From assembly GCF_045037415.1 (NCBI RefSeq), contig NZ_CP173438.1: a DNA stretch of 64,000 bases. One strand, written 5' to 3'. This document shows, in pieces, positions 24,001-33,000 of the stretch; within the stretch, counting starts at the first letter, position 1; every line of letters begins with the position of its first letter. Made by a program: the position numbers. Origin of the DNA: Escherichia coli (lineage in GTDB: Bacteria; Pseudomonadota; Gammaproteobacteria; Enterobacterales; Enterobacteriaceae).

Positions 24001-27000
24001 GAGTCCTGTGCAGTGCGTTTCCGTATTATCCACGGATGAGAAAGTTGCGTTATTTCGTCGGTTGTTTCGTGGGCGTAGTGATGTATGGGGCCTTCGATGG
24101 GAAAGTAAAACTAGCGGAAAATAAAAGTACTCGCCTGCCTACGGACCTTTTTACTCAGGGTATTTTTGTTTTCCATAACGTTGCGTATTAACATGAAGGA
24201 GAACGAGGGGGATTAGGTAATCTCTTTCCATGAAAATACGCAAACGTTCATCACCGAAGTGAAAAATCAGTTTTTGATATTTAAATAATTTTTCAAATCA
24301 TATTTCAGCAGGACACTACCAGCACCTAACAGCAGCACATCTTTGATGACAAAACTGTCAACTTTTCCCAGTTGTGGTAACAGACTTAGTGTGACTAAAC
24401 CTGTAACAATAACGATAATATCTCCCAGTATGCCAGCAGCAGGCCTGAAGAAGCCGATACTCAGTGCTAGAAAAGTGATAGTTTCTACTATGCCGAGGAA
24501 ATAGCTCCCCCCATGAACACCAAACATAATGTACAGGATATTCAGCCACGTGGGAGAAATCAGGGGCTTGAGGGCCATCACTTCAAAATCAAACCATTTA
24601 TAGGTCCCGAAGAGCATAAATATTATAATAACAGACAGGCGAAGAATAACTATGTCATAATCTGATTTAATGTAAACATTAATAAATTTTTTCATTTCAT
24701 TCTCCGGGTGGAAAATTATATGCACTAAAAAGGATTAAGTACGGGTATCAAGCATTTTAATTAAAGCGTTAACGGTTCCTGAATAGATATCATGTGGTGG
24801 AAGTCGATTTAACATCAGTGCCCCCTTTAGTGTAGAACAGACTATAACGGCGAGCTCATCCGGAAGAAGAACTGTTTTGAACTCTCCACTATTCTGCCCG
24901 GAGGTGATAATATCTTTAATCATCTGTATCTCCTGATGTGCCAGTTGACTTACAGCCTCCTGTAATTCAGGAGAAAACTGATGGCTGTCGGATAGCATGG
25001 CATAAATACCGCACATTTCCCCTCTTTCAGCACAACCAGCAAATGCATCAAGATATGTCCTGAGACGTTGTACACCTGAAGAAACATTATGGAGAGTTAT
25101 ATTAAGTCTATCAAATACTTCTGTTTTGTATTGGCAGTAGGCTATACCAAGATCAGTTTTCCTCGGGAAATGGTGATGAATACTGGCTTTTCTGATACCA
25201 ATTTCTTTTTCCAGATCTGCGTAACTGAACCCCAAAAATCCGCGTTGCTGGATCAGAGTATCCGTTATGCGAAGTATATTCTCATAAGTAGACACGGCTT
25301 TACCTGTTATGTATTAAAGGGACTATTATACATATTTTAGCGATAGATAATGGCAGTTCCATCAAGTTTATTTTTTCCTCCCAATGAAGTGATTCGGAAA
25401 TGAGAACCTCCTGCCTGCTCCGCTTTGTCTTTAAGCGCAGTTGCCACCTCTTCTGGTGTATATAGATTACCAACAGAAATATAGTCTGACGGCATCAAAC
25501 CAACAACGTCCTGACGATTAATTTCATCTGCAGCAGTTGCGTAGCCTGTCAGAATGAGACCAAGGGCGACAATGGTAGTGCAGATAACATAATTCATGAG
25601 CAATTTCTCTTTATGTTTGCGATACTACACATGCTACCTTCTGATTGGTAGGCTTGCAAGATGGATTTATTTAAAATAAGAGGGATGATTTGTATCAAAT
25701 TGTTTTGTATTTTTGTGTTTTGTATCACTGAGGTGAAGTTGTAAGATCTGGCCCTCTGCGAGGTTGGCTCTGTCGAAAGGAACAGGTGACGAGAGTTAAC
25801 ATCGTTGCCTTGGCTGCATGGGGGATATGTAGCTACCCCCTGATATTTCCGCCACGGAAGCCAATATGAACAACAATAACAATACGCCTCGTTTCCAGTA
25901 TGCTTCATGTCGGATATTTTGTAAGCGCTATGTACTTCCCGGGACGCTTATCTTTTAGCCGTAGCTGGTAGTGCAATAAAAGCCTGGCAGCAATCCAGGC
26001 CTCTACGTTCTAAGAATCAACTGTCAGTGCAGAGGAATGCGCACGACGCTCTCGTTGTTATTGGCTTTTGCCGTCGCACCGTCGTTTTTCACGGTGACAA
26101 ACAGCGCGTGCGCTTTGCTATCCGTCTTATATCACTGGTGCTGACAATGTGGATGAGGTCGCCTTTAAAAAAGGACATCGTTATATAACGGTGATCTCCG
26201 ATCGCGATGGTCGTGCGCTGGCCTTAACGGACGATCGTGGCACAGAGAGCCTCGCCGGCTATCTTCGCACGCTTACTGACGGGCAGTTGCTGGCTATCAA
26301 AACGCTCTCAATGGACATGAATGCAGGCTATATAAGAGCAGCGCGTATCCACTTACCCTGTGCGGTTGAGAAAATCGCCTTCGACCGCTTCCATGTAGCA
26401 AAGCAACTTGGCGAAGTGGTTGATAAAACCCGTCAGAATGAACATCCGCACCTCCCTGTTGAAAGTTGGCGTCAGGCAAAGGGGACCCGCTTCCTGTGGC
26501 AGTACAGCGATAAATGGATGACCAAATCCAGGCAGGAAAAGCTGATATGGCTGCGTGCACAGATGAAGCTGACAAGCCAGTGCTGGGCGCTGAAAGAGCT
26601 GGCAAAGGATATCTGGAACAGGCCATGGAGTGAGGAAAGACGTAATGACTGGGAGAGATGGCTGGCTCTGGCGGCCAACAGTGACGTTCCTATGATGAAA
26701 AACGCCGCGAAAACGATAGGAAAAAGGCTTTACGGGATCCTGAATGCCATGCGACACCGTGTCTCAAACGGAAACGCGGAGGCGCTTAACAGTAAGATCA
26801 GGCTACTGAGGATAAAAGCCAGGGGATACCGAAATCGGGAGCGCTTTAAGCTGGGCGTGATGTTCCACTACGGGAAACTGAATATGGCGTTCTGAGCCTT
26901 CCCACCATGATCAGGGAAAACCCATGTATCATCAGGTTATTATGTGAGCTGGTAAATCAGATTTTGCATGGACTGAAATCATGCTGTTATTTAGGGATAA

Positions 27001-30000: not shown

Positions 30001-33000
30001 ACCCATGTTAATGACGGCTTTATCTTTCTGGGGCACAGGATCATTCGCAAACGCAGTCGTTATGGCGAGATGCGAGTGGTTCTCAACGATCCCGCAGGAG
30101 AAAGCCAGAAACTTCGCCGCATCGCTGACAGCACTGTTATCAGGCAACTACAGTGAAAGCAAAGTCGATATGGCTGAACAACTCAACCGAAAACTGAAAG
30201 GCTGGGCCATGTTCTATCAGTTCGTTGATTTTAAGGCCAAAGTCTTCAGTTATATCGACCGTGTCGTGTTCTGGAAGCTGGCTCACTGGCTGGCCCGCAA
30301 ATACCGTACAGGTATCGCTTCCCTGATGAGGTGGTGGTGTAAATCACCGAAACCGGGTCAGAGCAAAACGTGGGTTTTATTTGGTAAAACCAATCACGGC
30401 AAGCTCAGCGGCGAAATACTGTACCGGTTGGTGGGGCAAGGCAAGAAGCTGTTCCGCTGGCGGCTACCCGAAGGTAATCCCTATCTGAGGACGGAGACCA
30501 GAAACACGTATACATCGCGCTTTACAGAAGTGGCAATGGCGTTCGCCAGCATTTAAATGGAGAGCCGGATGCGCTGAAAGGTGCACGTCCGGTTCGGGGA
30601 GGAGAGGCAGGGAAATAGTCCGACTACGCCCTGCCTCTTACTCTACTCAGCACATGGCAGGGCTTCGTCTATGTGGCGTTCATCATTGATGTGTTTGCCG
30701 GATACATCGTGGGGTGGTGGGTTCTCATCGTCTATGGAAACGACATTCGTGCTGGATGCGCTGGAGCAGGCGTTGTGGGCCCGCCGTCCGTCCGGCACCA
30801 TCCATCACAGCGATAAAGGCTCTCAGTATGTGTCACTGGCCTATATGGAGCGATTAAAAGAAGCAAAACTGCTGGCATCAACAGGGAGTACAGGCGACTC
30901 GTATGACAACGCGATGGCGGAGAGCATCAATGGTCTTTACAAAGCGGAGGTAATACACCGTAAGAGCTGGAAAAACCGTGCAGAAGTGGAACTGGCCACA
31001 CTCACGTGGGTGGACTGGTATAACAATCGATGATTGCTGGGAAGGCTGGGCCATACTCCTCCGGCAGAAGCAGAAAAAGCTTATTATGCTTCCATCGGAA
31101 ACAATGATCTGGCAGCCTGAGTTCACAGATAAAACACTCTCCAGGAAACCCGGGGCGGTTCAGTAATATCTGATCGTAACGGACGGACGCTGGAATTAAC
31201 CGATGACCGCAGCACAGAGAGTAGGGGATGCGGACGGTCAAAGATCGTGGAGTTGGATTTTATAAATCTGTCTCCAGTAGTAGATGAACTGAATACAAAG
31301 TTGCCAGAGAGTGGTCTGTCAGGCAGGGAATCAGAAACCGGATATTATTGACTGGTACATTGTGTCGGGCTGTGTACGTTCTCCCCGGACAGACAGTCTC
31401 AGTTCGTAGAATCTATAAATTACTGCTACTGATGCTGCCGGGGAAAGGTGTAACGAAAAAGCAGCCTCCGTTACCGGACAGCAAGAAGGCTGAATGAAGT
31501 TTATGGCGTTTGTATTTTGTAATGTCTGGCCATGCAGTAAATCCAGACAGGTTTTTATTATCATGTGAAGTATTCTGACATAAAATACTAAATTTCTATT
31601 TTGTGATGAATGCTGCAAAACTGAATCTGCACTCTGATGTAACTTTTATCTGTTTCAGTGAAGCATGCCCACAGATTGAGTTATTAAGTTGTGGAAGAAC
31701 AGTTCTGCCCCGCCTGCTTCTCTCCTTTCAGAAGCCAGTATGTTGCCATGCCTCGCCTTAATGGAGAGCGCTGAACCACACCTTCTTTTTCCAGTAATAA
31801 CAGGTAATAGCGTGCCTGATAATCCGTTACCGCCAGCGCCTCCGCAATTTCTGCGGTTTTCCCTCCATTATGCCTGTTCAGAAATTCCAGTATTTCATTC
31901 TTCATATATTCACTCATCTCACTGTAACAAAGTTTCTTCGAATAATAAAAATCATGCTCTCTGTTATCAACGGAAAGGTATTTTTATTCTCTGTGTTTGC
32001 TTTATTTGTGCAATTTAGTGAATTTGCTTTTTGTTGGCTTTATTTGATGTGTATCACATTTTGTGTGTTATTTTTCTGTGAAAAGAAAGTCCGTAAAAAT
32101 GCATTTAGACGATCTTTTATGCTGTAAATTCAATTCACCATGATGTTTTTATCTGAGTGTATTCTTGTTGTTAGAATTTTATTCTGGTTTAATTTTGTTT
32201 TGTGGGTTAAAAGATCGTTTAAATCAATATTTACAACATAAAAAACTAAATTTAACTTATTGCGTGAAGAGTATTTCCGGGCCGGAAGCATATATCCAGG
32301 GGCCCGACAGAAGGGGGAAACATGGCGCATCATGAAGTCATCAGTCGGTCAGGAAATGCGTTTTTGCTGAATATACGCGAGAGCGTGCTGTTGCTCGGCT
32401 CTATGTCTGAAATGCATTTTTTTTACTGATAGGTATTTCTTCTATTCACAGTGACAGGGTCATTCTGGCTATGAAGGACTATCTGGTAGGTGGGCACTCC
32501 CGTAAGGAGGTCTGCGAGAAATACCAGATGAATAATGGGTATTTCAGTACAACACTGGGGAGACTTATACGGCTGAATGCTCTTGCAGCAAGGCTTGCAC
32601 CTTATTATACAGATGAGTCATCGGCATTTGACTAAATTATGGCATTCCGGAGTTTCTGGAAGATAAAAAAAGAAGCCCTTGTCAGAAAGCAGACAGGTTA
32701 TATCAGTATTCTGTCGATAAATAACCTGCCCTGAAAATACGAGAATATTATTTGTATTGATCTGGTTATTAAAGGTAATCGGGTCATTTTAAATTGCCAG
32801 ATATCTCTGGTGTGTTCAGTAATGAAAAAGAGGTTGTTATTTATGATTAAGTCGGTTATTGCCGGTGCGGTAGCTATGGCAGTGGTGTCTTTTGGTGTAA
32901 ATGCTGCTCTAACTACTCCACAGGGGCAGGGTAGAGTAACCTTTAACGGAACTGTTGTTGATGCTCCATGCAGCATTTCTCAGAAATCAGCTGATCAGTC

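Follow-up and report, generated by a model that had tools for sequence, protein, structure and literature searches.

We analysed a 64,000-bp stretch of an Escherichia coli genome (NCBI RefSeq assembly GCF_045037415.1, contig NZ_CP173438.1), referred to here as the window, and found in it two remnants of insertion sequences (IS) of the ISL3 family. One of these (remnant 1) lies to the left of a copy of IS629 that carries a group II intron, and the other (remnant 2) directly abuts the right end of this copy. It is very probable (roughly 0.93) that the two are non-functional leftovers of different ISL3-family elements, situated in the mobile-element debris of an island of extraintestinal pathogenic E. 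coli (ExPEC) and associated with a rearrangement linked to IS629. An earlier note on this DNA had proposed that both stretches encode the same transposase segment and that there are therefore at least two ISL3 remnants, and on both counts it was right. The shared segment corresponds to codons 173-192 of the 406-amino acid (aa) transposase of ISKox3 and ISEc53, and when both fragments were aligned to these full ISL3 elements, the check which that note had proposed, both were colinear with them, the short piece being ISL3-related as well.

By sequence comparison, the remnants come from two separate ISL3 elements and not from one element that was split, since codons 173-192 occur in both, at 72% nucleotide identity. 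The reading frame of remnant 2 opens at position 31163, and 31163..31222 translates to VISDRNGRTLELTDDRSTES. The earlier note had placed this piece at 31165..31225; its ISL3 identity stands, and the limits were off by 2-3 bases. It is bordered by IS629 on the left and by papI-distal sequence on the right, the homology ending at 31222. In ungapped comparison, remnant 2 shares 49 of its 60 nucleotides with ISEc53, 47 with ISKox3 and 43 with remnant 1, and 16 of the 20 residues in its peptide are identical to those of remnant 1. Third codon positions hold 13 of the 17 nucleotide differences between the two remnants, and because the differences are concentrated there, we regard the two as diverged coding sequence.

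The origin of remnant 2 was clarified by strain Rb-3 (locus L002), in which the right flank is 95.8% identical to that of the window and no IS629 is present at the site. In Rb-3 the identical 60 bp form the tail of a 415-bp remnant (L002 3646..4060) next to papI. This longer remnant is 87.8% identical to ISEc53 and 80.4% identical to ISKox3; it spans codons ~58-192, is frameshifted, and is named by the Prokaryotic Genome Annotation Pipeline (PGAP) as a frameshifted, incomplete 'helix-turn-helix domain-containing protein'. The ~355 bp upstream of the 60 bp read …HRKW(L)HLDTCQF…SRYSLLFELFVLSWLKISTVDAVRKQLKISWNAVDGIMTRVVKRGLSRMKKPLLARHMNVDEVAFKK… and represent the zinc-ribbon/helix-turn-helix part of the transposase, with an HTH_Tnp_ISL3 domain. 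Going left, this additional sequence begins exactly where IS629 ends in the window. Because Rb-3 carries a longer form that ends in the identical 60 bp, the 60 bp in the window are the part that survives of an ISEc53-like remnant on the distal side of papI, and the longer form is the ancestral state. At an identity of at least 95%, the longer form was found in 53 records (Combat2C1 is another carrier), and about 50 of them, besides Rb-3, have it without IS629. With IS629 abutting remnant 2 and the remnant longer in these records, the proposal that IS629 landed in or next to an ISL3 remnant is borne out.

Remnant 1 is a fragment derived from a member of the ISL3 family and is not an element in itself. 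Its open reading frame (ORF) matched the Pfam family DDE_Tnp_ISL3 (PF01610) with E=1.7e-54 over profile positions 3-238 of 240. In blastn comparisons the homology with full-length ISL3 elements started sharply at 26146 and ended at about 26923-26929, with a DNA identity of 93.2% to ISKox3 and 84.2% to ISEc53. Compared without gaps to the coding sequence of the ISKox3 transposase, 700 of 750 nucleotides (93.3%) and 242 of 250 aligned positions (stop included) were identical. A frameshifted full-length copy on the ehx plasmid pJNE082640-1 is 97.1% identical to remnant 1. The right terminal repeat (...CCACCATGATCAGGGAAAACCC) has been kept; its last base is 26923, in agreement with the right ends of ISKox3 and ISEc53. 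The left inverted repeat has been deleted, and the Zn-ribbon_ISL3 and HTH_Tnp_ISL3 domains (residues 44-141 in ISKox3 and ISEc53) are absent from remnant 1, in which the homology begins at codon 158. PGAP labels it 'ISL3 family transposase, incomplete, missing N-terminus' (ISKox3-family). Neither remnant can transpose, because remnant 1 lacks the left inverted repeat and the DNA-binding N-terminus and remnant 2 consists of 60 bp of internal coding sequence. A target duplication of 8 bp is a trait of ISL3 elements, and the full ISKox3 copy of E. coli M505 is flanked by one (ATATAAAA).

The range given in the earlier note starts at 26090, but 26090..26145 is not ISL3 sequence. Positions 25974..26123 share 95.4% identity with strain MEI3O-23 over the 3' end of a YncE-family gene, which is intact in that strain, and the sequence that follows it; 22 unassigned bases (26124..26145) separate this gene fragment from remnant 1. 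The left edge of remnant 1 is thus a deletion junction. Directly right of the ISKox3-like end, the 76 bp at 26925..27000 have counterparts, 97.4% identical and unannotated, on many large plasmids of E. coli. Sequence likeness suggests that the DNA into which the ISL3 element of remnant 1 inserted was itself plasmid-derived. The coordinates of all these features are given in Table 1.

Table 1. Position of the ISL3 remnants and of the features around them in the window, with the sequences of the two candidate targets of IS629
Feature	Position	Strand	Description
YncE-family gene, 3' end	26025..26123	-	last ~33 codons; translation ends ...HALFVTVKNDGATAKANNNESVVRIPLH*
ISL3 remnant 1	26146..26923	+	3' 778 bp (right-hand 59%) of an ISKox3-like element; codons 158-406 and right inverted repeat
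Remnant 1, remnant of coding sequence	26146..26895	+	DDE domain only; ORF 26149..26895, 248 aa
Phage Rz i-spanin fragment	27437..27544	+	MKHLRDDVAAGRRRLYIRAICPSLREA...; PGAP 'lysis system i-spanin subunit Rz' in several genomes
ISEc20 (IS110 family) left-end fragment	27516..27580	+	65 bp; immediate left flank of IS629
IS629 (IS3 family)	27581..31162	+	1311 bp without intron; both terminal repeats, orfA, ALIL frameshift pseudoknot, orfB
Group II intron	28376..30646	+	2271 bp, in IS629 orfB; GTGTG at 28376, AC at 30645-30646
ISL3 remnant 2	31163..31222	+	60-bp internal piece, codons 173-192, ISEc53-like; cut on both sides
ISEc20 sequence (candidate target of IS629)			reads CTGCCCCCAGTCG…
Rb-3-type ISL3 sequence at the IS629 junction point			reads …GGTATATAACA[GTA]

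IS629 was complete at both ends. The left inverted repeat (TGAACCGCCCCGGG) starts at 27581 and the right inverted repeat (...CCCGGGGCGGTTCA) ends at 31162; the Pfam domains HTH_Tnp_1, HTH_21 and rve were detected, as was the Rfam ALIL motif at 27916..28032. The element is normally flanked by a 3-bp direct duplication of its target. No 3-bp duplication was present around this copy, the left flank ending in ...TTACTG and the right flank beginning with GTAATA. As the flanks derive from ISEc20 and ISL3 respectively, at least one of them is secondary, and the combination of an unrelated left flank and a missing target duplication indicates that a deletion or rearrangement accompanied the insertion on at least one side. 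The 65-bp ISEc20 piece has 100% matches in many genomes independent of the locus, and strain ExPEC XM has it immediately 5' of the ISEc20 transposase gene, where it runs on as ISEc20 sequence. The left flank (…NGVLASQTRHDY) was also considered as the ISL3 segment upstream of VISD (…DEVAFKKGHRY); this was rejected, since it consists of the Rz fragment and the first 65 bp of ISEc20. The description of ISL3 fragments on both sides of IS629 therefore needs qualification: remnant 2 does abut the element, whereas remnant 1 ends 657 bp to its left, with unrelated DNA in between. Searches for two junctions, namely the empty site and the intermediate of a simple insertion, covered 5426 genomes. The empty site, in which the two flanks of IS629 are joined, was found in 0 of the 5426, and the same genomes yielded no intermediate in which the upstream ISL3 sequence of Rb-3 is joined to the left end of IS629.

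Three points weigh against the reading of the two pieces as remnants of different ISL3 elements brought to their present state by a rearrangement linked to IS629. The 20-aa peptide of remnant 2 by itself matches no Pfam family at E<=1, which is expected at such a length; what supports the ISL3 assignment is therefore its colinearity with ISEc53 at the DNA level and the comparison with Rb-3. The junction between IS629 and the remnant is ambiguous by 2 nucleotides, as IS629 ends in ...TTCA and Rb-3 reads ...AACA before GTAATATC. Furthermore, the order of events cannot be reconstructed, no intermediate genome having been found in the set searched. The lack of a Pfam match, the small size of the piece (only 60 bp or 20 aa) and its being left unannotated by PGAP in ST131-type genomes would all suit a resemblance to ISL3 that arose by chance, the piece not being derived from a transposase. 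We consider this practically negligible, given that within the window remnant 2 was detected with ISEc53 by blastn at E=4e-11 and by tblastn at E=1.9e-4 (35.0 bits). Dinucleotide shuffling of the window after removal of remnant 1 gave, over 100 rounds, a mean best score of 23.8 bits (standard deviation 1.5) and a maximum of 29.6; 0 of 100 reached 35. The bias to third codon positions and the identical 60 bp at the end of the 415-bp stretch in Rb-3 also speak against chance. Scarcely any weight is given either to a single ISL3 element of which remnants 1 and 2 would be the halves, split by IS629 and other DNA. Such an element would account for both pieces being on the plus strand, one on each side of IS629, and together covering adjoining parts of the transposase, but the segment present in both contradicts it, and with the Rb-3 form the overlap with remnant 1 extends over about codons 158-192, at 75% nucleotide identity. 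The closest relatives of the pieces differ as well (ISKox3-like and ISEc53-like), they stand in the wrong order for a single copy, as the 3' part precedes the 5'-derived one, and Rz, ISEc20 and other unrelated DNA lie between them. A homology search of the window revealed no further ISL3 piece, including the missing N-terminal part.

For the preferred explanation of two separate leftovers, the data show what the pieces are and where they end, that they stem from two elements, that the ancestral state was longer and that a target duplication is missing; the order and mechanism of the deletions are what we infer. The left part of remnant 1 would have been lost in a deletion that also took most of the neighbouring yncE-family gene, and remnant 2 would be the rest of an ISEc53-like element once distal to papI, with IS629 now standing where the missing ~355 bp would begin. 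IS629 may have inserted into the ISL3 remnant, the DNA on its left being later deleted or replaced; or it may have inserted into ISEc20, followed by an adjacent deletion running rightwards into the ISL3 remnant. At a later step, the group II intron would have retrohomed into orfB of IS629 in a subset of genomes, including that of the window. If ISEc20 was the target, IS629 was never in the ISL3 remnant, and the rightward deletion, which would have fused the right end of IS629 to codon 173, would have taken the remainder of ISEc20 together with ~355 bp from the start of the ISL3 remnant and whatever lay between the two. We give this course of events slightly less than an even chance. It is a variant of the preferred explanation and does not contradict it, and the present data do not discriminate between the two targets. 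ISEc20 sequence runs right up to the left end of IS629, which together with the missing target duplication and the lack of a simple IS629-in-ISL3 intermediate among the genomes searched would agree with ISEc20 as the target; against it, no genome was encountered in which IS629 interrupts, at this locus, an ISEc20 that is intact apart from this, the search for joined flanks not having been aimed at that arrangement.

The intron was recognised by a match to Rfam Intron_gpII at 30560..30646 (64.9 bits, domain V/VI), and cutting out 28376..30646 restores IS629. Its RVT_1 and GIIM domains are on separate overlapping ORFs (29032..30156 and 30005..30556), which points to a frameshift near 30065-30085, and this intron copy is probably immobile. 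The identical IS629/intron junction occurs in 1432 genomes, on both chromosomes and plasmids of E. coli. Without the intron, the IS629 sequence shares 99.9% identity with the copy that AR_0086 has at the same locus (1310 bp, no intron) and 96.1% with a copy on pO157 that PGAP describes as 'IS3 family transposase' and that was taken here as IS629. The difference of 1 bp (1311 against 1310) is a real insertion in orfB, an extra T at ~30722 relative to the AR_0086/ST131 copy, and this rules out an error in the intron boundaries as its source. An in-frame TGA at 31031..31033 (…WYNNR*) in orfB fits the 'internal stop' flag given by PGAP to the AR_0086 copy. With these changes, this copy of IS629 is defective even without the intron.

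The window is from an aerobactin–pap pathogenicity island of ExPEC (ST131-type), and the ISL3 pieces lie in its mobile-element debris. Positions 25900..27580 are present with 100% identity in more than 700 complete genomes, for example ST131 strains, Nissle 1917 and JJ1886. The arrangement of the window was found in at least 719 genomes, some with a plain 1310-bp IS629 (4/1-1, AR_0086) and others with the intron-bearing copy (DA33135). At the same locus in AR_0086, the left neighbours are iucAB (aerobactin) and genes for an MFS transporter, a TetR regulator and a DUF1471 protein; on the right side is a degenerate pap operon consisting of papI, a short papB, a frameshifted papA, IS1 and papX.

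The pap operon is likewise degenerate at 31684..34137 in the window, where an intact papI (FaeA domain) is accompanied by a short, split papB-like ORF and a frameshifted papA. An IS1 is located within it at ~33440..34137, a layout that agrees with the AR_0086 annotation. In the interval from remnant 2 to the papI 3' end, and on the same strand as papI, 31355..31533 (minus strand) is a full-length match to the Rfam family AS-pc02, 'antisense to pHK01_099' (58.6 bits, E=1.4e-12). On the other side of IS629, just upstream of the Rz fragment, a full-length match to the Hfq-binding small RNA STnc490 was detected at 27296..27418 (plus strand; 65.5 bits, E=1.8e-11). About 90 bp upstream of it, at 27188..27206, is a Fur-box-like sequence, GCAAATGATAATCATTGTC, which agrees with the consensus at 16 of 19 positions. 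The left side of the longer ISL3 remnant in Rb-3 is truncated by a fragment of an IS481-family (ISEc18-like) integrase core (L002 3497..3649, minus strand), next to pgtABC; the pap/ISL3 junction of this strain thus lies in a different island context.

The observation itself is already known and ordinary, in that remnant 1 is annotated and remnant 2 is annotated in other strains, in its longer form only. The case brings no new type of element, no new gene and no new mechanism, and there is no evidence of function for the remnants. The 60 bp to the right of IS629 can now be described as an unannotated ISL3 relic, a small improvement to the annotation of an ExPEC island that is already well sampled, and the relic is a marker that connects pap loci of other islands with the degenerate one found here. 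The junction of remnant and pap has different upstream neighbours, pgtABC and the IS481-family fragment in Rb-3 as opposed to the aerobactin island in the window. Judged from the sequence, it is conceivable but very improbable that the ISEc53-like remnant lies at what was once the edge of a pap module that had been mobilised or, alternatively, that the intact 248-aa DDE-only ORF is expressed and interferes with the transposition of resident ISKox3 or ISEc53. If the former were true, the pattern of junctions would be consistent with the pap operon having been captured, or moved from one island to another, by way of ISL3.

Among known elements, ISKox3 (406-aa transposase; full copy in E. coli M505) is the one most like remnant 1, which is colinear with it and shares its stop codon and right repeat. 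Remnant 1 is a diverged relative at 93% identity and differs in lacking the left repeat and codons 1-157. Remnant 2 and the Rb-3 form align to codons ~58-192 of ISEc53 (full copy in E. coli MS 21-1), and the 88% identity indicates that they came from a distinct, though related, ISL3 element. The group II intron E.c.I4 has been described as homing into the transposase genes of IS629, IS911, ISEc16 and ISEc31 (PMC3522654). By that description, the intron of the window, which lies in IS629 orfB, is a putative E.c.I4; the window copy differs in that its intron ORF is split and the orfB of its IS629 host is damaged too.

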